Origin: Minisyncoccia bacterium
Lineage (GTDB): Bacteria; Patescibacteriota; Minisyncoccia; Phycocordibacterales; UBA918
Direction: 5' to 3'
Length of the DNA: 64,000 nt
NCBI GenBank assembly: GCA_041742075.1
Contig: JBGSJJ010000013.1
Location: 1,801 to 65,800 of the forward strand
Shown here: piece by piece, positions 2,909-29,386 of the stretch
How positions within the stretch are numbered: position 1 is the first letter of the stretch
Layout: each line of letters opens with the position of its first letter
Made by a program: the position numbers and the translations under genes
Notes under the pieces: generated by a model
Database searches by the model: none
What the model was told of the DNA's origin: nothing
What the model saw: the letters and a program-made list of their open reading frames with translations, nothing else

Positions 2909-4120
2909 CTACTTAATCACACTGGCTACCGCCTTCACCAAACCCGGTGTCATGACGCGCGGAATTACCTCTTCCGCTGTTGGCTTACGCACCAAACTCG
3001 CCAACTTCCTTGCAGCGGCAAGTTTCATTTCGTCGGTAATTGCGGTCACTCCTCTATCAAGTGCGCCACGGAAAATACCAGGAAACACCAGTGAATTATT
3101 GACCTGGTTAGGGTAGTCACTTCGGCCGGTAGCAACCACTGCTGCCCCGGCAAGCTTAGCGTCTTCAGGCTTAATCTCTGGCACTGGGTTAGCAAGCGCG
3201 AACACAATCGGCTGAGGTGCCATCTTTTCAATATGGTGCTTCGAGATAGTACCTGGCCCAGATACGCCAATAATCACGTCGGCTCCATCAACCGCCTCGA
3301 GTACCTGACCTTGTCTTCGATGTCGGTTCGTTACTTTAGCCAGTTCCTTTTTGTACGCAATAAGTCCACTGCGTCCTTCGTAAATAATTCCGTTACTGTC
3401 AGTCACAATTACTTCTTCTACACCCGCCTTAAGGAGAAGGAGCGCAATCGCTCGACCGGCTGCGCCAGCCCCCACAATCACGACCCGAAGTTTTTCAAAC
3501 TTCTTCCCGACCACCTTAGCTGAGTTTAAGAGGCCGGCGAGCACCACAACTGCCGTACCGTGCTGATCGTCATGCATCACCGGTATGGTGAGTTCAGCCT
3601 TTAATCGTTCTTCTATTTCAAAACAGCGTGGTGCAGAAATATCTTCCAAGTTGATGCCACCAAAACCAGGTGCAATTGCTTTCACTACTTTTATAATCTC
3701 TTCGGTGTTTTGTGTATCGAGGACTATTGGAAAGGCGTCGACATCAGCCATGGTTTTAAATATGGCGCACTTACCTTCCATTACTGGCAGGGCGGCAATC
3801 GGACCGAGGTTACCAAGACCAAGAATAGCCGAGCCGTCTGAGATAACTGCAACCGTGTTCCGCTTAATCGTGTACTCACGTGCATCTCGCGGAAACTTAC
3901 CCAAGTGAACCGAGACTGCGCCGACACCGGGACTGTACATCGTACTCCAGTCGTCACGCGTCTCGAGCTTCCCTTTACTGACGACTTCTAGTTTTCCATG
4001 GAGCTTCTTGTGAAGTGCGAGCGCCAGTTTGTTGTAGTCTTTTTTTGCTACTGTCGGCGCTTTTTTGGCAGGAGTCTTTTTTACGACCGCTTTTTTTGGG
4101 CTGATTTTCTTTGGTGTCAT
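2909..4120 (-). CDS. maeA: NAD(P)-dependent malic enzyme with N-terminal Lys/Ala/Pro-rich histone-H1-like tail
   Basis: Malic-enzyme core is recognisable (ETRDDWSTMYSPGVGA, the Rossmann segment VVIVGAGAAGRAIA, VFANPVPE). The likely start is MTPKKISPKKAVVKKTPAKKAPTVAKKD at 4120. The longer ORF to 4252 adds an implausible hydrophobic leader. Confidence 0.8.
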   Translation of the reverse strand: MTPKKISPKKAVVKKTPAKKAPTVAKKDYNKLALALHKKLHGKLEVVSKGKLETRDDWSTMYSPGVGAVSVHLGKFPRDAREYTIKRNTVAVISDGSAILGLGNLGPIAALPVMEGKCAIFKTMADVDAFPIVLDTQNTEEIIKVVKAIAPGFGGINLEDISAPRCFEIEERLKAELTIPVMHDDQHGTAVVVLAGLLNSAKVVGKKFEKLRVVIVGAGAAGRAIALLLLKAGVEEVIVTDSNGIIYEGRSGLIAYKKELAKVTNRHRRQGQVLEAVDGADVIIGVSGPGTISKHHIEKMAPQPIVFALANPVPEIKPEDAKLAGAAVVATGRSDYPNQVNNSLVFPGIFRGALDRGVTAITDEMKLAAARKLASLVRKPTAEEVIPRVMTPGLVKAVASVIK

Positions 4121-4286
4121 AACGTAGGTTTGAGCATTGATAAATATCGAACTAGTATACAAGAGTGTGGGGCTGAGAAAAAGAAAAAGCCCCGAAGGTG
4201 GGGCCTGGTCAGCTGGTGACCATGAAAGGTTCGCTCTGTGGAGCAGTGCCACTTACCGTGGTTGCTCGCCGATGTCGGTGTCGGGT

Positions 4287-4421
4287 TCAGCAGATGTCCC
4301 AGCCGTCGTGGCAGCGGATGTCGCCGCCTTCCTCGAGCTTGCCGCTGCCGTGTTCGCCATGCTCGTGCGCGCCGTCGTAGCCGAGGTGCGTGCCGGTCGG
4401 GTCGTGGTTCTTCGTCACCAT
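4287..4421 (-). CDS. small His/Gly/Asp-rich protein (44 aa): MVTKNHDPTGTHLGYDGAHEHGEHGSGKLEEGGDIRCHDGWDIC
   Basis: Strong RBS (AAGGAG, 6 nt spacer). Upstream candidate promoter TTGCAA-16nt-TAGTAT. About 65% GC in a 45% GC neighbourhood. It is below the 60-aa cut-off of the ORF track. Confidence 0.4.
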   Translation of the reverse strand: MVTKNHDPTGTHLGYDGAHEHGEHGSGKLEEGGDIRCHDGWDIC

Positions 4422-4546
4422 CAGTGCTCTCCTTCTAGGATGAGCGCTCTCGGAACAGCCGAGCTCTGCCCAGACGTTGGGGGATACTACATACTCAGAC
4501 TTTATTTATACTAGCGTGAAACTATAGATTTGCAAACATCCGTGTA

Positions 4547-4583
4547 GAGAAAAGAGCGGTCACTTATGACCGCTCTTTTCTTT
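4547..4583. terminator. terminator hairpin (aaaagagcggtca / tgaccgctctttt)
   Basis: 13-bp stem plus T-run, 3-prime of minus gene 4627-5097. Confidence 0.7.
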
Positions 4584-4626
4584 ACATTTGTATATGAGCC
4601 AATCAATTGCTCATCTTGAAAACAAC

Positions 4627-5097
4627 TTACTCTAACCACTCACCCGCTACCCAACCAGCTAGACCTGAGTCGAACGTAACCTGGTGCCAGGTGTAGTCAC
4701 TAAACACAATTGGTACACCCACTACGGTAGCGACCATGCCTGGAGTGACTTGTCCGACTTTGTCAGTGAGCACTGATGGTGAGAGGCGAACATTGAGAAC
4801 GGCTGTTACTGTTTTTGTATTTGTACTAGGTGGAAGCTCTGTTTCGACAACCATGGTGGGATCAACGGGATCAACCGCTTCATCAGCACTCACGCCGAGT
4901 ACAGACTCTCCAAACACTGGATCAGCTGAGTTTGACGTTGAAGCCCCGAGCACAGCCGGCAAAACTACAGTCACTGGGTCCACTTCACTGACCGGGTCAG
5001 CTGACTGTGCTTCGGCAAAGGAAACCAAAGAAAACATTATGGCTGTGAGTACAATTGCTCCAAAGATAGCTCGAAAAAAAGTGTTTACTAAAGTCAT
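4627..5097 (-). CDS. secreted protein with C-terminal bacterial SH3 (SH3b) domain
   Basis: Signal/TM segment (AIFGAIVLTAIMFSLVSFAEA). C-terminal LNVRLSPSVLTDKVGQVTPGMVATVVG...GWVAGEWL matches the SH3_3 pattern. Confidence 0.55.
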   Translation of the reverse strand: MTLVNTFFRAIFGAIVLTAIMFSLVSFAEAQSADPVSEVDPVTVVLPAVLGASTSNSADPVFGESVLGVSADEAVDPVDPTMVVETELPPSTNTKTVTAVLNVRLSPSVLTDKVGQVTPGMVATVVGVPIVFSDYTWHQVTFDSGLAGWVAGEWLE

Positions 5098-5264
5098 AGC
5101 TTTGCAAATTATAAATGATTATCTTGTAAGTATACGCAAGATACTCTAAGTCGCAACAGCAGTGAATGTAAATGGGAATATATAAATATTACTGCTCATA
5201 CAGTCACCATAAGCGGATAGTGCGAGCCTCTTTGAGGACGCAAACGAAGTCAGTTATTATTCGA

Positions 5265-5298
5265 AATAAAAAACGGGCGGGGACTATGTCCCCGCCCG
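5265..5298. terminator. terminator hairpin (gggcgggga / tccccgccc)
   Basis: GC stem with flanking A/T runs, 3-prime of minus gene 5333-6163. Confidence 0.65.
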
Positions 5299-5332
5299 CA
5301 GTCCACCAACGAGGGTGGATATTGCTCATGTA

Positions 5333-6163
5333 CTACAAGATGAACTCGTCAAAAATTGCCATGGAGGGCTCAACGAAGGCGCTGTAGCCTCCCTTGAACA
5401 TGTACCCTGCAAAGTCCGCTTCGACGTGGACAATTTCACCGTTTTCACCCTGGAACCAGAGTTCATCCAGAGAAATTGTGTGGACCTTCATGTGCGAAAG
5501 GTAGAAATGCGGATCTTTTGCATACGACCATGAAACGAGCTCGACGTCGCCCAGTTCACGGAAGTCAAAACGATCGCCTTCTTCCATGTCGAAGTCTTGG
5601 ATCGTAACCGAAGCCCCGGCCTTGACTTTGAACACATCGGAACCCTGACCACCCCAGCCCTGATCGCCCTCACTCATGAGCAAGGAATCATTGCCTTCGT
5701 TGCCATACAGTAGGTCACGACCCTTCCCGCCAACAAGGTCGTCTCGCCCGGCACCGCCCCGCAAGAGGTCGTTACCAGCTCGACCATAGAGAGTGTCGGA
5801 ACCCTGACCACCGGTCAGATTGTCCCCGCTACTGGTTCCTCGTAAATCGAGGTCGACCACGACCCGTTCAAAGGTAGCGGTTCTAACTTCGCGCACGAGA
5901 TAATCAGCGGCATCACTTTGGTTCGGTCGCAGGGTAGTGACAACAGGATCGCCACCACCTTTACTCCCATAGGCTTCAAGCTGGTACATCATCTCTTCCC
6001 GCAAATGCGGAGTGTTGATGATGGTCTCTCGGTCAAGCTCATTTGGATCACTACTGACCGCCGGGATGTTATCGAGCGGTCCATCGTCCTGCCTGGGAGG
6101 TTGCGTGATCGAGCGATAGACGCCCACAACACCAGACCAAAGTGTACTTAGAGGATTAGCCAT
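5333..6163 (-). CDS. RTX (hemolysin-type calcium-binding, GGxGxDxL nonapeptide) repeat protein
   Basis: LTGGQGSDTLYGRAGNDLLRGGAGRDDLVGGKGRDLLYGNEGNDSLL is a run of tandem RTX nonapeptides. No N-terminal signal peptide. GC-rich gene. Confidence 0.75.
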   Translation of the reverse strand: MANPLSTLWSGVVGVYRSITQPPRQDDGPLDNIPAVSSDPNELDRETIINTPHLREEMMYQLEAYGSKGGGDPVVTTLRPNQSDAADYLVREVRTATFERVVVDLDLRGTSSGDNLTGGQGSDTLYGRAGNDLLRGGAGRDDLVGGKGRDLLYGNEGNDSLLMSEGDQGWGGQGSDVFKVKAGASVTIQDFDMEEGDRFDFRELGDVELVSWSYAKDPHFYLSHMKVHTISLDELWFQGENGEIVHVEADFAGYMFKGGYSAFVEPSMAIFDEFIL

Positions 6164-6332
6164 GTCTTAGTTTCCTTAGGTTGAGCCTCGCGCCCTTCCC
6201 AGAGAAACCTACGTCTCCACTCGTACTAAACATTTTCCCCCGTACGAGCAGGTAATACTTATAACATAAAAAATAGCGCAGTCAAGGGAATTCCCCGACT
6301 GCGCCGTGAGCTCACTTGAGCACGTTGATGAA

Positions 6333-7211: not shown

Positions 7212-7997
7212 TCAGACTGCTGTCGCCAGATTGACGACGTTGATGCACTCTGCCTCGACCTTCTTGAGACGGCTTGCGCCCTTCTCAAGAAGACCCAGGA
7301 TGTAGCCTCCCTGGTTGGGGAGCTCCGTTGCCACCTGCGCGAGACCCTCTTTGGGTCCGAGCTGAAGCAGTGCGCGAGTCTCCGTCGGTGAGAAAATCGG
7401 CGCGAGGATGCGCTGACCTCCTACCAGGAAGATGCCAATCCGCTTCGACTCCGGCCGAGTCAGCACTTCCTTGGTCGAAGCGACGGCCGTGACCGCCGTG
7501 ACCGGAGCCACGGGGACGGAACGATTGGACTGTCCGCCTTCCTGCTCCAGCATGACCGGGGTCACTCTGGCGGAACGCTTGGGCTGTCCGCCTTTCTTCT
7601 CGACCACGAAGTGCTCGAGTGCCTCCTCCCACTCTCCCGATTCGGGATTCAGAGAGAAGAGGACGCAGGGCGTCCCTTCTTCCAAACACTCCCACTCAGA
7701 GCCGGAGACCGGAAGGCCCTTCCAGACCTTGCTGTCACTGTCCCGTACGTAGACCGGCTCGCGTGAACGAATCAGTTGCCGACGGATTTCACGGGCCGCT
7801 TTCTTGTCCGCGACCCGTTCTTCGCTGGCGCGCCGCTCTTCGAAGAGCTCAGTGGCCGATTTGGCCACCATGATGGACTCACGATAGAGCGAGCGCACCT
7901 TGGCGACTGGACCTCTCGGACCAATCAAGTCAATCACGAGCTCGTAACGCTCGCCGACGACCAGATCGAGTTCGGGAGGAATGCCCTTTTCGTGCAC
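7212..7997 (-). CDS. hypothetical protein (GC-rich; GTG start), in the same frame as the upstream cold-shock-domain ORF and separated from it only by TGA
   Basis: Long open frame with an internal approximate repeat (EKKGGQPKRSARVTP / EQEGGQSNRSVPVAP). It may be the C-terminal part of a disrupted or read-through gene. Confidence 0.4.
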   Translation of the reverse strand: MHEKGIPPELDLVVGERYELVIDLIGPRGPVAKVRSLYRESIMVAKSATELFEERRASEERVADKKAAREIRRQLIRSREPVYVRDSDSKVWKGLPVSGSEWECLEEGTPCVLFSLNPESGEWEEALEHFVVEKKGGQPKRSARVTPVMLEQEGGQSNRSVPVAPVTAVTAVASTKEVLTRPESKRIGIFLVGGQRILAPIFSPTETRALLQLGPKEGLAQVATELPNQGGYILGLLEKGASRLKKVEAECINVVNLATAV

Positions 7998-8033
7998 GAA
8001 GAGATCGCGTCCGTTCGAGCGACTGAAGAAGCC

Positions 8034-8516
8034 TCAGGTCGGCATCTTTGTATCGAAGCCACACTTGTACGTGGCGATGATGATGTCGCCGACCTTGATT
8101 TGACCAATGCGATTGGTCTTCTCGGGATCTTCGTGCTCGATGTCCGGCAGGCGAACCAGCTCAGGCCGACGCACCTTGATGCGTCTGGATTTCGCGGGCA
8201 CAGTTTTTGCCGGGGTCGCTCCTTCCGCCACCGTGGCGAGCTTGTCGCCGATACGGTGGATAGCAACGGCCTTGCCTTTGCCGTCGTCGTCGAGATCGTA
8301 GTCGATTTCGGCCATGACTCCCGGCGCCATATCGGCCGTCGTGAAGCCGAATTTCGCCAGCGTCGTCTCGTGGACAAACCCGTTGGGCATGCCCCAGAGC
8401 GTGAAAAAGCCGAAGCCTTTGCCCGCATTGAAGAATTTGACGACGGCGCTGATGTTGGTGAAATCAGCGACGGCCTGTTCCTGGTCGTTGTTTCCGACGT
8501 GAAAAGCTGCGTTCAT
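8034..8516 (-). CDS. cold-shock domain (CspA-like) protein with C-terminal extension
   Basis: VKFFNAGKGFGFF is the canonical CSD RNP1 motif. The ORF ends at a TGA that is in frame with ORF 7212-7997. Confidence 0.65.
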   Translation of the reverse strand: MNAAFHVGNNDQEQAVADFTNISAVVKFFNAGKGFGFFTLWGMPNGFVHETTLAKFGFTTADMAPGVMAEIDYDLDDDGKGKAVAIHRIGDKLATVAEGATPAKTVPAKSRRIKVRRPELVRLPDIEHEDPEKTNRIGQIKVGDIIIATYKCGFDTKMPT

Positions 8517-8615
8517 CGCTTCGGTCTCCCTGTGAGCCTACGAGTGTGCCATTACACCATGTAACGAACTCCACTTTTACTATATTAGCACACTTTATAG
8601 TAAAAGTCAATATTA

Positions 8616-10838
8616 GTGAGCAAAATCAGTCATTTTAAGCCCAGATTTGCTACTATTATGGTTATGTCTCCAGGCGACTTATTAACCAAGCACTTCCGTA
8701 TCGACGCGGTACACCAAAAAGCGCTCAAAAAGCTCGGCGTTCATACTGTCTATGACCTACTCCTCCACCTCCCGGCTCGGTATGAAGACGTGAGCGATAT
8801 CCAGTCAGTGTCAGGTCTGCAGAAAGACCAAGAAGCAATTGTCTTTGGGCAACTGTCTGGACTCAAGACCAGGAAGGCCTGGAAAAGTCGCAAGCCAATA
8901 GCGGAAGGCTACGTCGAAGACGGCTCGGCTAAGATAAAAATCATGTGGTTTAACCAACCTTATCTCGCGAAGATGTACGCTGACGGCATGTACGTGAAGC
9001 TCGTGGGTAAAGTAACCGGAAGCGAAGGCAAGCTCTATATCGCGAACCCCGAAGTAGAGAAGCTCGATGCTCTCCCGGTAGACAGGCATGACTCTATTTT
9101 TAAAAATACTGCCAACTTAGACGACACTATCTATCCGGTCTACCGAGAAACCAAAGGGGTCACGAGTAAGTGGTTTTACCACACGGTACTGAAATGTTTT
9201 GAACGTGGCATTCTCGACAGCCTTCCTGACCCTTTACCAAAAGTGATGCTCGACCGCTACCACTTGCCAGAGTTAAAAACTGCACTGGTGTGGATTCACT
9301 CACCAAAGAAAGCTGAACATGCGCAAAGTGCTCGGAAGCGATTTGCGTTTGAGGAGATTTTTTACATCCAGACTCAGCGGGCCCAGGAACGTAGAGCGGT
9401 GAGTGCGGCGTCGACGTATACCGTCAGGACAACTTCTGACCATCTCTCTGCCTTCACGAGTCGCTTCCCGTTTGCACTCACGAGTGCGCAAGCTAAAGCC
9501 ATCGATGCCATCCTTGGTGACTTCGGTGGCGCTCATGCCATGTCACGTCTGCTTGAAGGTGACGTTGGTTCCGGTAAGACAGCGGTTGCCGCCAGTACTG
9601 CGTACGCGGTCGCCACTTCGAGGCCGCCGGAAGGACTCGGAAAAGCACTTGAGTTCGGAAATCTTCAGGTGGCGTACATGGCGCCAACTGAGATATTAGC
9701 GAAGCAACACTTCGAAAGCTTTATCGAATACTTTAAGCACTTACCAATCGCCATTGGTCTCATGACGGGGAGTGGCTGCCTCAAGTACCCGAGCAAGACC
9801 GACCCAACCAAACCAACGAAAATAAGTAAGGCACAATTGGTAAAGTGGGTAAAAAATGGTGAAATACCAATTCTAATTGGCACCCATGCGCTCATATATA
9901 AGAGTGTCGAATTCAAACACCTTGCCTACGTGATTATTGATGAGCAACACCGCTTCGGCACCAACCAACGAAAAGCTTTAGCTAAGAAGGACACTCGTCT
10001 GCCACATCTCCTTTCCATGACCGCGACACCAATTCCCCGCACACTCGCGCTTACCGTCTACGGAGACCTTGACCTCACCTTGCTTGACGAAATGCCGAAA
10101 GGGCGGAAACCAGTCATCACAAAAATCATTGGTCCCGGCCAAGAAGCACCCATGTATGAACACGTTCGGAGTGAACTGGAAGCTGGGCGACAAGCCTACG
10201 TCATCTGTCCACGGATTGACGAGCCAGACCCTGACAAAGAAACAGCCCTCAACACGAAAAGTGTCAAAGCTGAGGCGGAACGTCTCAAAAAAAGTGTCTT
10301 TCCAAAGTACCGTTTCGATATTTTGCATAGCAAAATGACACCAGCTGAAAAAGACAAAGTGATGGCTCGCTTCGCGAAGCATGAGACGGATATCCTCGTA
10401 GCGACGTCTGTCGTCGAAGTGGGGGTAAATGTACCAAACGCAACCAACATCATCATAGAAGGTGCTGAACGCTTTGGTCTCTCTCAACTCCATCAGTTAC
10501 GTGGTCGGGTAATTCGCAGCAACGACCAAGCCTATTGCTTTGCGGTCTCAAGTAGCAAAAGTGACAAAACCAAAGAACGACTTAAAGCACTCACCACTGC
10601 CAAAAATGGTTTTGAGCTGTCTGAGTACGACTTACAGTTCCGAGGCTCCGGTGAACTCTACGGTGCCAAGCAGTCCGGCCTCTCAGACTTAGGGATGGAA
10701 GCACTTAAGAACCTGAAGCTAGTCGAGGCCGCCCGCACCGAAGCACAAGCACTCATCGATACAGATGAACACCTCACGAATCACCCCGCCATCGCCGCCC
10801 GAGTTGCCAAGCTCGGTACTGCACTCCATATGGAGTAG
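8616..10838 (+). CDS. recG: ATP-dependent DNA helicase RecG
   Basis: Wedge/OB N-terminal domain, helicase motifs GDVGSGKT and DEQHRFG, 740 aa. The true start may be the internal Met at 8658. Confidence 0.9.
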   Translation: MSKISHFKPRFATIMVMSPGDLLTKHFRIDAVHQKALKKLGVHTVYDLLLHLPARYEDVSDIQSVSGLQKDQEAIVFGQLSGLKTRKAWKSRKPIAEGYVEDGSAKIKIMWFNQPYLAKMYADGMYVKLVGKVTGSEGKLYIANPEVEKLDALPVDRHDSIFKNTANLDDTIYPVYRETKGVTSKWFYHTVLKCFERGILDSLPDPLPKVMLDRYHLPELKTALVWIHSPKKAEHAQSARKRFAFEEIFYIQTQRAQERRAVSAASTYTVRTTSDHLSAFTSRFPFALTSAQAKAIDAILGDFGGAHAMSRLLEGDVGSGKTAVAASTAYAVATSRPPEGLGKALEFGNLQVAYMAPTEILAKQHFESFIEYFKHLPIAIGLMTGSGCLKYPSKTDPTKPTKISKAQLVKWVKNGEIPILIGTHALIYKSVEFKHLAYVIIDEQHRFGTNQRKALAKKDTRLPHLLSMTATPIPRTLALTVYGDLDLTLLDEMPKGRKPVITKIIGPGQEAPMYEHVRSELEAGRQAYVICPRIDEPDPDKETALNTKSVKAEAERLKKSVFPKYRFDILHSKMTPAEKDKVMARFAKHETDILVATSVVEVGVNVPNATNIIIEGAERFGLSQLHQLRGRVIRSNDQAYCFAVSSSKSDKTKERLKALTTAKNGFELSEYDLQFRGSGELYGAKQSGLSDLGMEALKNLKLVEAARTEAQALIDTDEHLTNHPAIAARVAKLGTALHME

Positions 10839-11357: not shown

Positions 11358-12059
11358 TATATAAAAAAGTAACGGCTGACAAACAGCCGTTACAAACACT
11401 GACCTAAAACTAACTATATAAGTTCCACTTAATAGCGTACCCCAAAAGAGAAAGTTGAATTAAAGCGTCACTGACATACTGAAATACTGCAATGACTTCT
11501 TCAGAATCAGAATAGGCTATATACCTACAGGGGTAACAAGAGAGATGGAGTATCTCATCCGTGGTCAGTCTGCGGACATGGACCACGATAGGTGCTGGAC
11601 CCATGAGTACATCGTACGCACAGGTGGACAGAAGCTTACGACGTGCCATCAACTTCCCCTCCTTGGTTTGAACTTTCCTACTCCAATTAGATACCCAATC
11701 GAAGCTTTATACAATACGCCTAGTGCGCGGACGAGATACAGGAAAACCGCTGCCATGAGGCAGCGGTTCAGGTGTCTATGGAGCTTGGTAGCACCACAGG
11801 TCAGGGTCTTCTGTGCGGGGTTGGTACCGCGCCCTTGTGGCTTGGATCACCTCCTTTCAGCTGGAGTGCAGGCTCGCCGCCATGAAGGCTTGAATCATAA
11901 AGTTGGTCATGACTGTCCCCGTCTGAAAGAATGGTCTAAAACTACCATCCATACGTATTAGACACCCGATTTCAAAATTTTACAACAGAGACGCCTGAAC
12001 AGGCGCCTCAAGTCTCTATACTTAAATACTAAGCATACACTGCTTGAAAAAGGTCTTTG

Positions 12060-12133
12060 TCCGCCCTCTTGGACTCGAACCAAGGACCACAGAGGTATAA
12101 GCTCTGTGCTCTAACCAACTGAGCTAAGGGCGG
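12060..12133 (-). tRNA. tRNA-Ile, anticodon UAU (reads AUA)
   Basis: On the minus strand, cloverleaf with acceptor CCGCCCT/AGGGCGG, U8, D-arm GCTC-AGTTGGTTA-GAGC, anticodon stem CAGAG/CTCTG with loop CTTATAC (anticodon TAT), T-arm CTTGG-TTCGAGT-CCAAG, discriminator A. No encoded CCA. Confidence 0.75.
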
Positions 12134-20905: not shown

Positions 20906-21355
20906 ATGACTACCTACATCCAAAACAAAAAAGCTAGCTTTAATTTTGAACTACTCGAAACCTTTGAGGCCGGAGCAGTGCTTTTTGGCTATGAAGTGAA
21001 GTCGCTCCGGGGCGGTATGGGCAAACTCGACGGTGCGCACGTACTAATTCGTGGTGGTGAAGCTTTTTTGGTTGGTGCCTCGATACCCGCTTTTCAGCCA
21101 GTCAATGCGCCAAAAAGCTACGATCCGGAGCGTGTACGTAAGCTCCTTATGACAAAAAAACAGTTGGCGTTACTCGAGCGAGAAAGTGAACAGGCGGGCT
21201 TGACAATAGTGGCATTAAAATGGTATAATAGTAATCGGAAATTGAAGCTTGCAATTGCGCTTGCGCGTGGTAAAAAGAAAGCTGATAAGCGTGAGTCCCT
21301 AAAAGCCAAAGACGCTAAAAGAGACATCGCCCGTACCTTGAAAAGCCAGTACTAG
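20906..21355 (+). CDS. smpB: SsrA-binding protein SmpB
   Basis: The N-terminal region and Lys/Arg-rich C-terminal tail fit SmpB. 149 aa. Confidence 0.85.
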   Translation: MTTYIQNKKASFNFELLETFEAGAVLFGYEVKSLRGGMGKLDGAHVLIRGGEAFLVGASIPAFQPVNAPKSYDPERVRKLLMTKKQLALLERESEQAGLTIVALKWYNSNRKLKLAIALARGKKKADKRESLKAKDAKRDIARTLKSQY

Positions 21356-21447
21356 CCATAGTACGTTACTTCAGTTACAGATAGGTGGAGGGAATTATTC
21401 CCGAAACCATAACCACGACCACCATACTTCTAAGGAGGGACTAAAAA

Positions 21448-21609
21448 ATGCCATCACCAAGAAGGCGTAACGACGAGGACGACGAGGTCTTTCTCGACCC
21501 CGATCCGGCAGAGGAAGGACTGCCGAAGCGGAGCGAACTCAATTTTGAACCGACCTCCTTGCGGGAGGTCACAAGAGACGGTACGTTCCTTGAGGCCTGG
21601 GAGAGCTGA
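21448..21609 (+). CDS. small acidic hypothetical protein (53 aa)
   Basis: Strong RBS TAAGGAGGG. GC-rich. Ends at a TGA that is immediately followed, in frame, by the next ORF. Confidence 0.35.
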   Translation: MPSPRRRNDEDDEVFLDPDPAEEGLPKRSELNFEPTSLREVTRDGTFLEAWES

Positions 21610-21804
21610 ATGTCACTCTACCTAGTCATGAGCTCCCAACTGGGAACCAACCCTGTCGCGAAGCTAAAGGAAATCTGTCGCGACCCGGCAGACCTCCCCT
21701 TTCCGGGACCGTTCCTCACAGCCGAAGACGTCGGCGATGAGAACTTCGCCAATAGCCTGCGCCAGGCGTTCTACCCTGCACCGGAAGACCACCACACCAG
21801 CTAG
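21610..21804 (+). CDS. small hypothetical protein (64 aa), same frame as 21448-21609
   Basis: An ATG directly abuts the preceding TGA. The stop lies inside a hairpin. Confidence 0.3.
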   Translation: MSLYLVMSSQLGTNPVAKLKEICRDPADLPFPGPFLTAEDVGDENFANSLRQAFYPAPEDHHTS

Positions 21805-21872
21805 CTAAAGCGATGCTTGCAAGGCGCTTTAGCTAGAAATCTTGGCAAGGACGTGTCCCACACGTCCTTGCC
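21803..21872 (+). terminator. two tandem perfect hairpins (agctaaagcg/cgctttagct and ggcaaggacgtg/cacgtccttgcc)
   Basis: 10-bp and 12-bp perfect inverted repeats. No strong T-run, so they may be regulatory rather than terminators. Confidence 0.45.
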
Positions 21873-21917
21873 TTCACCTATCTGTACCTGAAGTCAACTC
21901 AAAGCGAAAGAAGCAAA

Positions 21918-22205
21918 ATGACCTCAAACGTAAACTGGCTAAGCATCGCGCCGTACGCTGTTCTTTTTTTTGCAGTGGTATGCGGACTTAGAGTCGCGTA
22001 CATTAACTCAAGGTCTCTCAGTCGCAAAGGTCAGCCACCGGCCATGAAAATCAAGGAAATGCCGGTATTTGAGGACACGTCCTCAAAGGTTGAGCTGCCA
22101 GCAGGATTCAGGCTCGCGCCGAAGCGGGTTGACCCGGCAAAGGAAGCTGCTCGACTTCACGCCAGCAAGGACCATCCATTGCTGAGAGGCAGACCAAAAC
22201 CATGA
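21918..22205 (+). CDS. small membrane-anchored hypothetical protein
   Basis: One TM helix, then a basic/proline-containing tail. Its stop overlaps the next start (ATGA). Confidence 0.35.
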   Translation: MTSNVNWLSIAPYAVLFFAVVCGLRVAYINSRSLSRKGQPPAMKIKEMPVFEDTSSKVELPAGFRLAPKRVDPAKEAARLHASKDHPLLRGRPKP

Positions 22206-22426
22206 AGCGACCCTTTTTCTCCTGGTCAGACGTGGGGCAAAATTTGCTCGAGATACTCGAGTTGGGAGTGGGTCTTGTAGTCTTCGTCATACTCTTGATT
22301 ATGATAAAGTATCGCAAAGAGTTGTACGCTGAGTTCTGCAAACCTCTGGTAATTAGTTTCAGGAATTTTGTACACAGAGTTTCGTGCAACCAATCACTGA
22401 TTCAGATTGTGCTTCTCCTGCGCTAA
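22202..22426 (+). CDS. small membrane hypothetical protein
   Basis: TM helix LLEILELGVGLVVFVILLIMI. Followed by a strong terminator. Confidence 0.35.
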   Translation: MKRPFFSWSDVGQNLLEILELGVGLVVFVILLIMIKYRKELYAEFCKPLVISFRNFVHRVSCNQSLIQIVLLLR

Positions 22427-22428
22427 TC

Positions 22429-22467
22429 GGGCAGGCGCACCTGCGCCTGCCCGAATCTCTTTTTTAT
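22429..22467 (+). terminator. terminator hairpin (gggcaggcgca / tgcgcctgccc) plus TTTTTTATT
   Basis: 11-bp GC stem plus T-run. Confidence 0.8.
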
Positions 22468-22515
22468 TAGAACTACCCTTCCCTGAAAGTATTGAAGTAC
22501 ATTTCAATTTTTTCA

Positions 22516-22909
22516 GGGGATGCTAGGCATCGACGGTTAGCCCCGGAAGTAGTGCGCAATGTCGAAAGTGAATGTGAATTCGTTAAAATACATTCAACAC
22601 TTACGTGCAAAGAATAGCGTAAAAAGCCCATACTTTTCGAAGTTGAGCTTCGCCCCTGCTGTAGCGTAAATAACGCTCGCAGTCAGCGACATCACTTCTC
22701 CTGACGTCTGATACGGAGGAGTTGGTGTAATAAACATCGGACTCTTAGCTACCGCTCCGCAGTAGTGATAGCTAGAATTTCTTACTGCTCGACAGTCTGG
22801 ACTTTGGTTTTCTTTTAATCCAGGCTGTTTAAACCCAAAGGAGGACTATACATTGTAGACCCACCGCTTTCACCTAATTCGGACGGGAGTTCAATTCTCC
22901 CCATCTCCA
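22516..22909 (+). ncRNA. ssrA: tmRNA (ssrA)
   Basis: 5-prime GGGGATGCTAGGCATCGACGG. 3-prime tRNA-like end GGGAG-TTCAATT-CTCCC then CATCTCC-A, which pairs with the 5-prime GGGGATG. Internal tag frame GCA AAG AAT ... GCG TAA gives AKNSVKSPYFSKLSFAPAVA. Lies about 1.1 kb downstream of smpB. Confidence 0.75.
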
Positions 22910-23121
22910 CGAGTACAAAAAACAGCTCACACATTTTTGTGTGGGCATTTTTTGTTCGTGGAGATGGGAGCAAGCAAACTACTTTGCTTGCGTGAGAATT
23001 GAACTAAGCATAGCGATGTGACTTTGTCACGAGTGAGCTCGGGGAGGAAGTTCTTAGTATTTTAAGAGTGGTACGAATTAAAATACTTAGAAACTTGACC
23101 CTTCATTCTCCCCATCTCCAC
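22895..23121. repeat. tmRNA 3-prime-end repeats: direct copy ttc(a)attctccccatctccac at 23101-23121 and inverted copy cgtggagatgggag at 22957-22970
   Basis: 16 of 16 nt are identical between 22895-22910 and 23106-23121. The pattern resembles an att core duplication left by an element integrated at ssrA. Confidence 0.6.
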
Positions 23122-23207
23122 CGACATATAAGTATGTAGAAATACATGGAACAACATAGAAGTTTACTCGTATGGGTAAGCTTTTTTGTTTTGGTATACT
23201 TAATTTA

Positions 23208-23513
23208 ATGCAAATTATTCTCCTTGATTCTGTTGAAACATTTTTTGGGTCACTAAACGCAAAAGAAATTGCCAAAATAATTCGAACAATTGAATTACTA
23301 GAAGAATTTGGTAATGATTTAGGAATGCCACACAGCAGACACATGTCTGATGGTCTACTGGAACTACGGATACGCGGAACTAGAGAAATTAGAATATTCT
23401 ACTGCTTCCATAAGAAACAGGCTGTTTTACTACATGCCTGTATCAAGAAAACCCAAAAGACACTCGATAAAGAACTAGGCAGAGCGCGAGACGCAAAAGC
23501 ACACTTGCAATAA
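23208..23513 (+). CDS. type II toxin, RelE/ParE superfamily (HigB / Gp49-like addiction-module killer protein)
   Basis: LELRIRGTREIRIFYCFHKKQAVLLHACIKKTQKT matches the Gp49/HigB-like toxin pattern. It precedes an XRE HTH gene. Confidence 0.55.
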   Translation: MQIILLDSVETFFGSLNAKEIAKIIRTIELLEEFGNDLGMPHSRHMSDGLLELRIRGTREIRIFYCFHKKQAVLLHACIKKTQKTLDKELGRARDAKAHLQ

Positions 23514-23539
23514 TATAACTTATAAGTTATATTTACTTT

Positions 23540-23815
23540 ATGAGTACTACATTCAAACAATTTAAAACCAAAACTCTCAAGGACCCAGTCGTCAAAACTG
23601 AGTACGAAGCGCTTGGAGCAGAGTATGGGGTAGTAAAAACTATTATCAAAGAACGTGTTAAGCGTGGCTGGTCTCAGACAGAACTGGCAGAAGCCATCGG
23701 TAGCCGCCAGCCAGTTATTTCTCGCCTGGAACGTGGTGACGGCAATCCTTCCCTGCAAACCCTCAGTCGCATTGCCAAGGCACTAGATTTATCCCTCAAG
23801 GTATCGATGCGGTAA
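23540..23815 (+). CDS. XRE-family helix-turn-helix protein (HigA-like antitoxin)
   Basis: WSQTELAEAIGSRQPVISRLERGDGNPSLQTLSRIAKAL is a canonical HTH_XRE. Confidence 0.7.
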   Translation: MSTTFKQFKTKTLKDPVVKTEYEALGAEYGVVKTIIKERVKRGWSQTELAEAIGSRQPVISRLERGDGNPSLQTLSRIAKALDLSLKVSMR

Positions 23816-23984
23816 TCACCAAAAATCAACAATCTTCAAAAATTCACACACTCCATTTCAATCAAAGGGGTTTTTCACCACAAGAGCATTTCCAAAATTA
23901 TGTTCGAGTGAACTCTCACTAATTTCTAGGTCACTTGAGTTAAAGTGCTCTACTTATATAAAACTCATCAAGACTCAAAAATCT

Positions 23985-25734: not shown

Positions 25735-27141
25735 TCATGCTGCGAGTGCGCATGAGGTACCACGAGCACACTTCTCGGCAGCAGTCTTGCCATAGGATGT
25801 CAACACGACCGGCAGACCGAGCAGTCCACCGAGTCGATCAGCATAGGCTTCACCCCGCTCAGAGACTGGAGTGTAACTTGCTTCAGCCTTCCGTAAGACC
25901 TCACCGAGTAAGAGCTGGTGCGGCTTGTTCTCAGCGTCGAACTTCGGCCGGAGCGCAGTTACGTAGTCAACGTCGGAGCGCGAGCGTGGCTCGATGATAA
26001 GTGCGGCCACTTCAGTGTTGGTGAGTGCACCGGCCGGTACTCGATAACGAGTTGCAAGCATCGGTGACGGCACCGTATCGAGACGATCAAGGTGTGTGAC
26101 CACAAGCGAGTCAACTCCTTCACTCGCCATAAGCGCATAGCGCGTAAGTGGAACATCGAACCAGCCGACCCGAAACCCTTCCTGCCACGTGCTGTAGCGA
26201 TTGTGCTCATCAGGAAGCTGTGTCGTCAGTGACATGTCTTCGGTTGGAAATGGTCCGGCGCCGTGACGAGTGCTGTATGCGCGCACCACGCCGTAGCGAG
26301 AAACCGGCTTGTCATAGCCGATATCCGCGAGGAGCGTGTTGGCATTCTTCGCCGTCGTCGTGCTCCAGGTGGTGTACGGATGGAAGCCGTGCCGCTCATC
26401 AAGCAGCACCCCTTGTGCCCCTTCGAAGATGAGTGGCTTGGTTTCGGCCAGCCGCTTGAGTGTCCGCACGGAAGCGATAGTGAGACGCTTGCCGATTTCG
26501 TAGAGAGCGGAAGCAATCAGCTCCGGCGCCCGGTAGTCGTAGAGGTGCTGTAATTCCTCACCGAGGTATCCGTACGATCTGAGCTCGTTGAAGTACGGCG
26601 AGAACTCGACATACTTCAGTTCCTGAAGAGTCTTGAGACGCACGAGAAGCGTCGAGCGCGAGCGTAGATCAGCAACCCGAATCGTGAGCTCGGGATGGGC
26701 GATGGAGTCCGACATCGTTTCGCCGATACCCATGCCACAGCTACCGTGACGACCATGACCCCGGAGCATTTCCCGCAGACGATTGCCGGCTTTCTGGAAC
26801 GGCGTCACGACGATCGCGTCGCCGTCAATCGCGATTCGAGCGAACGGTTCCGTGACACCGAGCTGCTCGAGACGTCGTGCCTCCTCCTTGAGGGCGAACG
26901 GGTCAACAAGCATGAAACGTGAGAGGAACGTCCGCACACCCAAAACGAAGGTGCCGCTCCCAAACTGGGAGAAGGTGTGGTGACGGCCGGTTGCAGTGTG
27001 CACGTTGTGCGCGGCCTGTGCACCGCCGTTGTAACGAACAACGACCGCGCCTTCCATTTGGCGAGCTAGATAGTCAACAGTCGTACCCTTGCCCGCGTCG
27101 CCAAACCCGAGGTCGGTCACGATAGTAGCTCTTTGTTCCAT
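25735..27141 (-). CDS. adenylosuccinate synthetase (PurA) family protein
   Basis: P-loop [17 protein letters not shown]...[12 protein letters not shown], then [37 protein letters not shown] and [15 protein letters not shown]. These match PurA motifs ([55 protein letters not shown]). RBS AAGGAA. Confidence 0.7.
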   Translation of the reverse strand: [468 protein letters not shown]

Positions 27142-27217
27142 AACGTGATTCCTTGTGTGAGAGAAAAGAAAAGCGGTGGCGCGAAGCGCCACCGCAGAGG
27201 TGTTCGGTGTGTTCAGC

Positions 27218-28231
27218 TCAGAGCCGACTCACACCACCTGAGGCACGTCGCTTCGCGAGTGTGCCGCCAGTGCGAGCAGCTGTTCCGGCTGCCACCGACT
27301 TGTTGCCGATAGGCACGAGCGCGTTCTTGACGGCGCTCGCGGCTGCACCAGAGAGTCCGATGTCAGCCACGACACGGTCGGCGTCGTACGAGCTCTCGAG
27401 CATGTGGATGATGCCAGCGATGATCTCGCAGACCAGGCTCGAGTCCTCGACCATGACGAGTCGCTCTCCGAGGAGCTGCCGCCAGCGGTCGTGGATGTCC
27501 ATGCGATCAGGATAGCTGCCATCGAGTGCGAACAGGTGGAAGATGTTCCACTGCTCGCTCGCCCGAGACAGAAGCGACTCGACCGTTTCGTCACCCTCGA
27601 CGTCGACGCCGAAGATCTTCTGCACGTCGGCTCCCGTAACGGTCGGCCACGGCATCTCGTCGCCCATCGTGAAGAGGTAGCCCTTCTTGCCGCGCTTCTC
27701 GAACGCATCGCTCGCGGTGTGGTTGGCGGCGAAGTAGTAGGCGAGCCCGTAGGACTCCTTCACCTGTCCGCCGCCGCCCTCGAGGATGATGGCGCGCAGC
27801 TGATCGTCGAAGCGGTTGTCCGATTCGAACTGACCGACCTGGAACGGATAGCGGTCGCACGTCGAGTCGCCGACGGCGCCGACCAGCACCTGTGGGTCCG
27901 AGAGACCAGCCTTGTCGATGATCACGTCCATCAAGCTCGTGAGCTTCTCCTGCAAGACGCGCGGGATGCGCCCCATCGAACCAGTGACATCGAACAGCAT
28001 GGCGATCGGAATCGAGTTCGGGTGTTCGTCGCTGTCGCGGCTCTCGCGCACGCCGTAGTGGTAGCGCGCCGGGTCAGGGTTCTTGAAGCCCTTCGGGTCG
28101 AGCGAGGTATGAATGCCGCTCGCCTTGCCGGACCGAACCTTGACCGTATAGTCGAAGTCGTCGATACCACTTGCGCGGCGCGACGTAGCTGCAGCACTGT
28201 AGATGCTGCTATCCCAAGTACCACCACCCAT
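27218..28231 (-). CDS. von Willebrand factor A (vWA) domain protein
   Basis: MIDAS motif IAMLFDVTGSMG (DxSGS). RBS AGGAGG. Confidence 0.65.
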   Translation of the reverse strand: MGGGTWDSSIYSAAATSRRASGIDDFDYTVKVRSGKASGIHTSLDPKGFKNPDPARYHYGVRESRDSDEHPNSIPIAMLFDVTGSMGRIPRVLQEKLTSLMDVIIDKAGLSDPQVLVGAVGDSTCDRYPFQVGQFESDNRFDDQLRAIILEGGGGQVKESYGLAYYFAANHTASDAFEKRGKKGYLFTMGDEMPWPTVTGADVQKIFGVDVEGDETVESLLSRASEQWNIFHLFALDGSYPDRMDIHDRWRQLLGERLVMVEDSSLVCEIIAGIIHMLESSYDADRVVADIGLSGAAASAVKNALVPIGNKSVAAGTAARTGGTLAKRRASGGVSRL

Positions 28232-28264
28232 GATGTCCTCCTTTGGGTTTGGTGTAGTTTCGAT

Positions 28265-29386
28265 TCACGTGTTCGGCATAATAAGTGGCCGATACGTTCG
28301 TCCCCAGTGGCCTCGCACCGCATCAGTGAACTGACGCAGTACAAGTGCCCCATCGTGTGCACGTCGCTTCGGGTCTGCCACGAGGCAGCCCTTCACCACT
28401 TGCACGATGTCACTCGGAACCTGGCTCGGGAATCGATCGCGAGCCACGTCGCCGCCGGTGAGATAGAGAAACGCCTTGCCGGCCATGTAGAGGTCGGTTT
28501 GGTGCGTCGGTACTTCACGGGCGAATACTTCAGGCGGGTACCAGTCTCGGTAGCGGTCGATGACCGTTGTTAACCGAGCCTTCCTGACGTGTGGTTCGAT
28601 GACCGCATGCGCCCAACCCAAGTGGAGGGGCTCATGGGTCTTCGGATGCACCAGCACGTGCTCCGGCACTAGTGCGCCATTGACGACACCGAGCATCGCT
28701 GCCGCCAGAGTCTGACCGAGTACCCGTCGCCAGACCCAGGCGGCTGCCTCTTGTGGCAAGCCATCCTGGTAGGCAGTACGGATATCCTTGAGCGAAACGA
28801 AACCTGGTCGCTCACGGTAGACATTGGCGCGGTAGCGAATGTTGCCCGCTTCAAGCACCAAAAAAGTGTCAAGAAGTTCAGGCAGAAACGGTGCCAAGAC
28901 CGAAGCCTTGCCGGTCGCCCGTGACAGCACCGCCACCTCATGTTCGAGGTATTGGTTCTGGCTCGGCTCAGCCGCTACCTTCACCACAACAGCCGTGCCA
29001 TCTGCAGCGACCCCGCGATAGAGAAGCGAAAAGTCACCCTCTCTAAACGGTGTCGCGGCGCAGGTATAGCTCATCGTCGAGCCAGTGAAGCTGATAGTCG
29101 GTCCAGTTGTAGAACCAGCCGAAGCAAACGGCTCTTCGTACCGACCGGCGGCCAGTGCCGCTTTTGCACGTTCGTGCAGGTCGATGATACGTGTGAGCAC
29201 ATCGCCAGCCAGCGCTTGTTCAGGACCTGCTCGGTCGGGGTGCGAGGTGCGAGCAAGGTAGACGAACTTCTTCTTGAGTTGCCGTTCCTGCTCGCGCTTG
29301 GTACCCAGAGGGAGCGAACCAAAGACGTCACTGTAGCGAGTGGCGCCCTTAAGCTGTGAGTCGAAAGCCGCCAGTGCGCTCTGCAT
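28265..29386 (-). CDS. J-domain (DnaJ-like HPD motif) fused to a protein-kinase-like domain
   Basis: N-terminal LKKKFVYLARTSHPDRAG is a J-domain helix II-III with HPD. Downstream come VVVKVAAEP (VAIK-like) and a GALVPEHVLVHP catalytic-loop-like segment. RBS AAGGAG. Confidence 0.55.
   Translation of the reverse strand: MQSALAAFDSQLKGATRYSDVFGSLPLGTKREQERQLKKKFVYLARTSHPDRAGPEQALAGDVLTRIIDLHERAKAALAAGRYEEPFASAGSTTGPTISFTGSTMSYTCAATPFREGDFSLLYRGVAADGTAVVVKVAAEPSQNQYLEHEVAVLSRATGKASVLAPFLPELLDTFLVLEAGNIRYRANVYRERPGFVSLKDIRTAYQDGLPQEAAAWVWRRVLGQTLAAAMLGVVNGALVPEHVLVHPKTHEPLHLGWAHAVIEPHVRKARLTTVIDRYRDWYPPEVFAREVPTHQTDLYMAGKAFLYLTGGDVARDRFPSQVPSDIVQVVKGCLVADPKRRAHDGALVLRQFTDAVRGHWGRTYRPLIMPNT

Follow-up and report, generated by a model that had tools for sequence, protein, structure and literature searches.

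A gene-less, structured unit of about 210 nt at the 3′ end of ssrA: a probable new family of tail-replacing insertion elements in CPR bacteria

The window analyzed here is a stretch of 64,000 nucleotides from a Minisyncoccia bacterium (contig JBGSJJ010000013.1, positions 1,801 to 65,800), and its ssrA gene for transfer-messenger RNA (tmRNA) carries in its 3′ region a gene-less, site-specific element of ~210 nt at 22885–23104. It probably belongs to a new family of insertion elements, which are miniature, structured, and non-autonomous and provide the tmRNA with a replacement tail. Bacteria of the candidate phyla radiation (CPR), or Patescibacteria, have tiny genomes with very few recognized mobile elements. 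The single tmRNA gene and the tRNA-Ile(UAU) gene of CPR would hence be a busy insertion site—taken by gene-less elements of 0.2 kb and by small cassettes of accessory genes as well. The T arm and acceptor strand of the mature tmRNA would be horizontally replaceable, which tmRNA phylogeny and annotation must allow for, and island finders keyed to integrases miss gene-less elements of such size. Positions are given in window numbering, and features of the window lie on the + strand unless marked. Related loci (L numbers) were fetched with smpB as query from one-genome-per-species GTDB contigs and from JGI metagenomes; the best SmpB identity among these relatives is ~70% in both sources alike. 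By these SmpB comparisons, the window falls within the Patescibacteria, near Candidatus Kaiserbacteria/Paceibacteria.

The tmRNA gene is of the standard one-piece form. ARAGORN places it at 22516–22910 with the tag peptide AKNSVKSPYFSKLSFAPAVA ahead of a stop, and the Rfam model RF00023 matches over its full length (model positions 1–374) at 22516–22912 with 114.1 bits against a threshold of 47, which bears out the ends given in a preliminary description of this stretch (22516–22909). The tag reading frame (~22607–22669) finishes in a hydrophobic A-x-A and a stop, and the tRNA-like domain features the G3:U70 acceptor pair. This pair appears as G3·T in the acceptor GGGGATG/CATCTCC-A, which, like the T arm GGGAG-TTCAATT-CTCCC, reads as first described; the 3′ CCA is absent from the coding DNA (…CCAC-GAG). 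The start of ssrA lies 1160 nt downstream of smpB, where ~1.1 kb had been estimated. The spacer between the two genes (21356–22515, 1.16 kb) contains small open reading frames (ORFs) without Pfam match and a strong terminator hairpin at 22427–22454, and its length in relatives varies from ~60 nt to ~4.5 kb (L063).

The end of ssrA recurs downstream as a direct repeat of 17 nt, ATTCTCCCCATCTCCAC, exact at 22894–22910 and 23105–23121 and extended to 21/22 with one gap allowed (TTCA[A]TTCTCC…); the repeat of the last 16 nt first noticed at 23106–23121, with a 20/21 match, is thus slightly longer than described. The insert defined by the two copies is 211 nt long and non-coding. A search allowing three mismatches, for which ~0.6 chance matches per window are expected, finds only one other near-match within the 64 kb, and this is an inverted copy. 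TCGTGGAGATGGG at 22956–22968 is the reverse complement of 22900–22912 (13/13), and GAGAATTGAACT at 22994–23005 is that of 22888–22899 (12/12). Jointly, the two parts are a contiguous inverted copy of 25 nt that reaches from the T loop to 3 nt beyond the ssrA end and is split by a hairpin of 22 nt, GCAAGCAAACTACTTTGCTTGC, at 22970–22991. The inverted copy of the preliminary description, placed at 22957–22970, therefore exists and is longer. The ssrA tail, the terminator, and the inverted copy fold into one forked hairpin of −49.3 kcal/mol with a z-score of −11.4, and the terminator hairpin is also visible in the sequences of related units. The downstream tail copy at 23102–23121 lacks the 5′ half of the T stem; it can be aligned to ssrA ends that are intact in L210 and L063, and the same trailer comes after it. 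A weak match of the permuted-tmRNA model RF04321 at 22885–22966 (20.6 bits against a threshold of 47) was rejected: tail, loop, and complementary 5′-like strand mimic the junction of a two-piece tmRNA. Two roles for the inverted copy were rejected as well. In the window it is predicted to pair with the downstream repeat and so to close the RNA, a pairing that lacks conservation in loci with two different tails (L132); and as a primer-binding site for mature tmRNA it should match CCA, whereas it matches the genomic trailer (CGA).

The same architecture recurs in relatives. Searches downstream of their tmRNA genes with each genome's own tail return one layout, in which a terminator comes first, followed by the acceptor-strand complement at +35 to +46, ~25 nt of inserted sequence, the complement of T loop and stem at +76 to +84, and, at +163 to +211, a direct tail copy. 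These units are non-coding, measure 140–210 nt, and occur in Paceibacteria/Kaiserbacteria (CPR) genomes; the architecture is also present in L128, a second assembly of the window strain. The preliminary description had proposed to look for the segment elsewhere, and in 1.31 Mb of relatives' loci, 69 copies of related units match an nhmmer profile made from 17 units (window copy, E = 7e-31), with the same orientation as the upstream RNA gene in 69/69. Of the related ssrA loci, 83 have 300 nt or more of sequence downstream, and in 36 of these (~43%) a unit starts less than 60 nt after ssrA. Tandem arrays with truncated or degenerate distal units occur in L083, L086, L064, L091, L092, L132, L135, L156, L167, L191, and L201.

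Rarer copies follow tRNA-Ile(UAU) (L080, L209, L067/L139) and tRNA-Ala(GGC) (L105). At these targets, the internal complement corresponds to the last 5 nt of the gene plus the first nucleotides of the unit itself—TGGAC|AAGCG with CGCTT|GTCCA and TCCAC|AAGC with GCTT|GTGGA. The target ends are GGAC or CCAC, and the units end in GAC or CAC. The tRNA-Ile gene with the rare UAU anticodon, a secondary target of the family, lies a few kilobases from smpB/ssrA in many relatives; that of the window (12059–12133, − strand) has no element downstream. Two copies of 40 nt of tRNA-Ile(UAU), from the anticodon loop to the 3′ end, stand 15 nt apart in L080 (2588–2720), and the displaced copy in L067 (2820–2950) has a different T arm, one that resembles the T arm of L080. 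Such duplicated 3′ halves point again to insertions that replace a tail, here at a second RNA gene. After the tRNA-Ile(UAU) of L067 (2925–3590; identical in L139) lies an element variant of ~700 nt with the usual left hairpin and complement and the right H3/GTGACGAC end. Its interior of ~500 nt is non-coding and highly structured (fold z-score of −7.5), and Rfam gives no match to this variant. In L209 (6576–6678), just downstream of the ssrA-linked element, Rfam reports a tRNA of 103 nt (53.6 bits) at a place where ARAGORN makes no call; this may be a tRNA gene with an insertion.

The interior of the unit is conserved as a fold. An alignment of 30 units (A1) yields 24 consensus pairs in three domains: H1; the H2 domain with long-range closing pairs; and H3. 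Compensatory double changes occur in 21/24 of these pairs, and the paired cells amount to 94.7%—compared with 68.1% in column shuffles and 33–40% when the partners are slid by one to three columns. Cells with double changes number 200, versus 57 expected. The H2 domain (A1 columns 51–58 with 94–100) is 96–98% paired and covarying, and H3 (columns 103–115 with 154–169) shows covariation in 7/7 inner pairs; its closing pairs take in the last nucleotides of the element (…AACTTGACCC; …TTGACCC). Part 2 of the inverted copy follows each genome's own T-arm sequence (mean 10.2/12 in the 30 units). The + strand is more stable than its complement in 26/30 units (p = 3e-7), and G:U exceeds A:C by 27 to 11. 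Given this strand bias and G:U excess, the selected structure therefore belongs to a single strand of ssrA sense, be it RNA or single-stranded DNA (ssDNA). At gathering score, the core has no counterpart among the Rfam families, either in the window or in nine related loci. Matches at E ≤ 10 are at chance level and were rejected as microRNA-type noise, next to a weak tmRNA_permuted hit. The core of 165 nt is thus a new, well-supported structured nucleic-acid motif without Rfam counterpart. The publications retrieved deal with standard, intron-containing, and permuted tmRNA genes as well as ordinary ssrA islands; an element like this was not found there, and the family is apparently undescribed.

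Empty sites show what the locus looks like without the unit. In L210 and L063, ssrA is intact, and directly behind it comes the trailer of ~100 nt that stands after the second copy in the window; L210 also has the equivalent of the higBA toxin–antitoxin pair behind this trailer. The uninterrupted 3′ flank that the preliminary description had asked for in relatives is hence found, and together with the 17-nt repeat of the gene's 3′ end that bounds the insert, it corresponds to what is expected of an insertion of the ssrA-island kind. That description had read the repeats as an attL/attR pair of a "deleted or miniature element" with only ~195 bp retained. A miniature insertion bounded by the ssrA 3′ end agrees with the empty sites. 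A deleted remnant is unsupported: the architecture of 140–210 nt, with homologous interior and covarying hairpins, is shared by dozens of independent genomes, and independent deletions would not yield it.

A view of an insertion comes from L051, L056, and L132, whose tmRNA bodies are 2–3% apart and which contain 0, 1, and 2 units. In a pairwise alignment of L056 and L132 (A2), L132 equals the L056 arrangement plus one extra unit of 221 nt adjoining ssrA. The extra unit is of a different subtype and has its own T arm, GGATTCAATTTCCACC, compared with GGGTTCAACTCTCGCC of the resident; the resident tail, terminator, and unit are displaced intact behind the newcomer and are ~95% identical to L056, and the two adjacent units have a core distance of 42–45%. 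The comparison of L056 and L132 therefore places the insertion point 5′ of or within the 5′ strand of the T stem (after …TTCGGAC)—thus beyond the last 16 nt alone—and indicates that the element supplies a functional T arm, acceptor strand, and terminator. Applied to the window, it would make 22885–22910 a replacement tail brought by the inserted element and 23102–23121 the decayed former 3′ end. In line with this, the T part of the inverted copy in the 30 units matches the functional tail (10.2/12) better than the displaced copy does (7.9/12). As fits horizontal behavior, the distance between element cores correlates only weakly with that between tmRNA bodies (Spearman r = 0.23), and in some lineages the insertion is recent.

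The following course of events would account for these observations. The element enters at or just upstream of the 5′ strand of the T stem, an event that would decapitate an essential RNA gene; this would be the reason for the replacement T arm, acceptor 3′ strand, and terminator that it carries, which would offset the loss. The present-day tmRNA would then end in element-borne sequence, with the former 3′ end pushed ~210 nt downstream, its T-stem 5′ half lost, and the 17-nt direct repeat remaining. Behind the terminator would follow the inverted copy of the element's tail and then the core of three hairpins with the last nucleotides of the element in a helix. Because the unit has no genes and no recombinase is found nearby, it would be moved in trans by a recombinase or transposase. 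Homologous exchange between conserved flanks after DNA uptake would be an alternative, since the ssrA trailer (23105–23202) is 94% identical over 99 nt to that of L063 (11294–11392), a genus apart, at 65–70% nucleotide identity of smpB. The covarying, strand-biased core most likely acts in cis as a recognition or guide module, read as RNA or ssDNA of ssrA sense. New units would insert next to ssrA and push older ones outward, leading to arrays of decaying units, and an excised circle would join the right end (RE) to the start of the T arm: …CTTGAC|GGGAGTTCAATTC…. As the ends of the core pair with target sequence, it offers a concrete candidate for RNA- or ssDNA-directed insertion. A bolder proposal, tentative and on the whole doubtful, is that the core, instead of being an inert relic or a scar of protein binding, is an RNA or ssDNA that directs its own insertion through base pairs with tRNA and tmRNA gene ends—guide-, bridge-, or ribozyme-like—and that it forms, with cassettes defined by left ends (LE) and RE, an integron-like, ssrA-anchored, CPR-specific platform whose enzyme class has not yet been linked.

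Several observations weigh against an insertion element. The scanned ORFs of the window (30 of at least 221 aa and 10/15 of 129–158 aa) contain no integrase, serine recombinase, transposase, or TnpA/TnpB; the insert itself is non-coding, so that no recombinase lies inside it as it would in an integrase-borne ssrA island. One hundred ORFs downstream of ssrA in relatives include no recurrent mobility gene. The sole exception, a large serine recombinase that abuts ssrA in L068, comes without a copy of the element. A free, circular, or virus-borne copy was not found. Exact look-ups of SmpB and HigA return only collinear contigs of the same strain, and no strain-level polymorphism is found for the window genome. 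No standard double-stranded recombination scheme explains the inverted tail copy. Finally, the presence in ~43% of loci across a broad clade and the purifying selection on the core also fit an RNA useful to the host. As to viruses, the region 22400–23900 has no similarity to phage DNA. A scan of viral contigs for the 17-mer gives 47 matches, almost all of them ordinary tmRNA 3′ ends of unrelated bacteria, and the 17-mer is therefore not lineage-specific; scans with three element and cassette motifs give nothing or a chance match inside a phage ORF, besides a single match to L213.

A host-useful RNA is the main rival reading, though we consider it clearly unlikely. The unit would be a structured RNA or a 3′-trailer domain of ssrA and tRNA units, with a role such as processing, decoy, or antisense. 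Its inheritance would be vertical, with occasional duplication or loss, exchange would occur by homologous recombination, and the unit would not be a selfish mobile element. The strong compensatory covariation and same-sense strand bias would suit such an RNA, as would the position directly behind highly expressed RNA genes, always in the same orientation. The complementarity of its 5′ part covers the precursor 3′ end and takes in trailer nucleotides absent from the mature RNA, and ssrA and trailer flanks are conserved enough for homologous exchange. Close relatives, however, differ in a patchy manner with 0, 1, or 2 units, different subtypes stand side by side in L132, and distal copies are decayed. 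Moreover, a terminator separates the tmRNA from the element, the 25-bp pairing with acceptor and T arm would misfold a co-transcribed tmRNA, and the tail complementarity has decayed in otherwise intact units (e.g., 7/12 in L064).

That the segment is the stump of a larger ssrA-integrated island or prophage after an interior deletion is very unlikely. An attL/attR pair is usually marked by such a direct repeat of the gene's 3′ end, integration at ssrA is classic, and real islands do use the gene in this clade: in L068, a large serine recombinase of 550 aa (Resolvase + Recombinase + Zn_ribbon; 7515–9167, − strand) terminates within the 3′ end of ssrA, with a MamI-type restriction enzyme behind it. 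L093 is probably alike, judged from an identical flank and an ORF of 102 aa at the contig end, and L081 has an LlaMI restriction enzyme and a C5 methylase directly after ssrA. The L068 recombinase and the L081 genes therefore show that classical islands share the site. A stump, by contrast, does not explain why at least 36 loci have one unit of 140–210 nt with full-length homology and covarying hairpins. Versions divided by coding sequence did not turn up—the parts of split matches lie only 70–100 nt apart—and even the longest variant (~700 nt, L067) is non-coding. By eye, the junctions show none of the att-site symmetry of large serine or tyrosine recombinases.

A small self-splicing, group-I-like intron in the T loop, with the downstream copy as the true 3′ exon, is a highly improbable reading. 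The tmRNA T loop is known to host group I introns, which occupy four subsites and average 293 bp (PMC11915505); the element shares with them the gene neighborhood, a comparable size, and a P1-like helix of the T-loop region and the internal complement that spans the junction. It differs in that the core of ~100 nt has two hairpin domains without a P3/P7 pseudoknot, that neither Intron_gpI nor any other ribozyme matches even at E ≤ 10, and that no U·G pair is present at the putative splice site. The upstream gene is already complete and terminated, exon sequence is duplicated rather than interrupted, and the downstream copy, which lacks the T-stem 5′ half, cannot rebuild a T arm with exact junctions. 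Chance matches or an assembly artifact have a practically nil probability: short repeats are common, yet a 17-nt exact repeat with inverted copies of 13 and 12 nt, exact and in register within 100 nt, the fold z-score of −11.4, and the same architecture in independent assemblies from many studies and in the second assembly of the strain effectively refute them.

The insertion element is one of two kinds of insert behind ssrA: the non-coding unit is a second kind, nearer to ssrA than a series of gene cassettes (coordinates in Table 1). The HigB/HigA-like pair announced by the preliminary description is confirmed by its domains—PF05973 for the predicted toxin and HTH_3 for the antitoxin gene, which follows 26 nt later. 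It appears to be a separate cassette that lies beyond the segment between the repeats and was inserted where ssrA formerly ended. Its left part (23122–23207) contains TAGAA/TGGAA repeats, a terminator-like hairpin at 23158–23185, and a −10-like TATACT at 23195–23200, 7 nt before the ATG at 23208. This ATG is probably the start of higB, rather than the 23172 of the mechanical ORF call, because the identity of 83% with the L210 homologue runs from end to end and 23172 lies inside the terminator hairpin. The trailer has four TAGAA/TGGAA-type repeats, which could be a protein-binding site or operator, or the whole trailer could be a module exchanged horizontally. The right-end module, …ACACTCCATTTCAATCAAAG…ACTTGAGTTAAAGTGCTCTAC, finishes in degenerate ssrA-tail-like sequence.

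Table 1. Features of the ssrA region in the window
Feature	Position	Strand	Evidence
smpB, tmRNA protein partner	20906–21355	+	Pfam SmpB 1.3e-43
ssrA (tmRNA), standard one-piece form	22516–22909	+	ARAGORN; Rfam RF00023
Functional T arm and acceptor 3′ strand, left repeat copy	22885–22910	+	L056/L132 comparison; inverted copy fits better than downstream one
Putatively element-borne bidirectional terminator hairpin: A run, stem 22925–22946, T run	22913–22955	+	Terminator scan, both strands
Inverted copy part 1: complement of acceptor 3′ strand and 3 trailer nt	22956–22968	+	13/13; mean 10.9/13 in 30 units
Hairpin H1, splits inverted copy	22970–22991	+	9 pairs, 8 with compensatory double changes in 30 units, 97.8% paired
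Inverted copy part 2: complement of T loop and T-stem 3′ strand	22994–23005	+	12/12; mean 10.2/12
H2 domain: 23007–09 closing with 23037–39, variable hairpin 23018–23030, conserved ATGT and GAG flanks	23007–23039	+	
H3 domain: long hairpin 23048–23065 with 23078–23096, GGG/CCC closing pairs	23041–23101	+	A1; single-sequence fold
Putative displaced, decayed ssrA 3′ end (TTCA-TTCTCCCCATCTCCAC), right repeat copy	23102–23121	+	17 nt exact
Left end of higBA cassette = native ssrA trailer	23122–23207	+	Homology to L063; terminator scan; motif at cassette junctions
higB-like toxin (Gp49/DUF891)	23208–23513	+	PF05973 1.7e-21; 83% identical to L210 homologue
higA-like XRE-family antitoxin	23540–23815	+	HTH_3 1.5e-17; HTH_37
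Right-end module of higBA cassette (…ACACTCCATTTCAATCAAAGGGGTTTTT…ACTTGAGTTAAAGTGCTCTAC)	23816–23952	+	Motif at 23846–23864

Cassettes of this type have a size of 0.5–1.4 kb, with a left end of C[AG]ACAT[AG]GAAATAT.TAGAAG, a hairpin, and TATACT and a right end of 60–140 nt running to ..TCCAC. A higBA cassette lies downstream of ssrA in L210, L074, L063, L086, L181, and others at 74–88% nucleotide identity. Homologous right-end modules, in some loci more than one, close other cassettes in 13 other loci besides the same-strain L130/L131, and internal cassette junctions show the left-end motif again. Cassettes span 23122–23952 in the window and 11313–11742 in L063; L155 has three or four (3922–6300), and L087 (6973–9110) and L099 (7315–11035) have two each. 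The cargo of the last three loci comprises two NUDIX hydrolases, a deaminase, DoxX, a GNAT acetyltransferase, an SRPBCC protein, an EamA transporter, and a methyltransferase; L063 also carries an ORF of 85 aa that is MORN-repeat-like by eye only. The region downstream of ssrA in this clade thus behaves like an integrase-less, integron-like cassette array. By eye, no consistent R″(RYYYAAC)/R′(GTTRRRY) cores are present at the cassette junctions (GTTAAAC in some; GTTAAAG or GTACAAA in others), and Phage_integrase, which an attC/IntI system would call for, has no match in the scanned ORFs of the window or in the 100 ORFs of relatives. The segment 23001–24000, which holds higBA, has a G+C content of 0.39, compared with a window mean of ~0.47. 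Further downstream, the G+C content of 26000–29000 is 0.59–0.62. This region includes purA (25735–27192, − strand) and two long, mutually overlapping ORFs without Pfam matches at 27404–28573 (+) and 28265–29386 (−).

Among known systems, ssrA/tRNA islands and prophages with P4- or CP4-57-type integrases likewise insert in the 3′ part of ssrA; the ssrA islands of Dehalococcoides (PMC3146451) provide a point of comparison for integration at the ssrA 3′ end. Shared features are the replacement 3′ end, the old end left as a direct repeat, and tandem arrays from successive insertions. Unlike these islands, the window element measures ~210 nt, has no integrase or other genes, and features an inverted tail copy and a covarying core. 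Its crossover is located 5′ of the T arm, and an incoming unit may have a T arm unlike that of the resident. [quoted passage not shown] CIMEs, however, are kilobase-sized decay products of integrative and conjugative elements, and MITEs have terminal inverted repeats, short target duplications, and many genomic copies. The element occurs in one or a few copies per genome at the ends of RNA genes and has a strand-specific structure in place of terminal inverted repeats: its inverted repeat lies wholly at the left end (tail against complement), and the right end is a direct copy.

Folded single strands offer a further comparison. CTXphi attP(+), used by XerCD, and integron attC are attachment sites formed by a folded single strand. 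The layout of the element—site, loop, and inverted site on the left and a partial direct site on the right—resembles the product expected when a hairpin attP integrates by single-strand exchange; tandem arrays with the newest unit promoter-proximal and neighboring cassettes with toxin–antitoxin, GNAT, and NUDIX cargo are further common features. The target differs, being an ssrA or tRNA gene instead of dif or attI, and R″/R′ cores, IntI, and filamentous-phage genes are absent. From the palindrome-associated transposable elements (PATEs) of IS200/IS605 and their TnpA(Y1)/TnpB guide logic, the element differs in that no TnpA/TnpB is found in the scanned ORFs of the window or the 100 ORFs of relatives, and the IS605 and omega-RNA families of Rfam give no match. 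The left-end complement lies 3′ of the hairpin and measures 11–25 nt instead of 4 nt, a geometry different from that of IS608, and the element has a gene-repair module. Common to both are the small size, subterminal hairpins near both ends, a strand-specific structure, ends held in helices by pairing with internal segments, and an element end that resembles the target end (GGAC/CCAC targets). In addition, the structured scaffold with 17 nt of target sequence behind it resembles an omega/re-RNA guide. In these features, the element is reminiscent of IS200/IS605 ends or of folded single-strand att sites.

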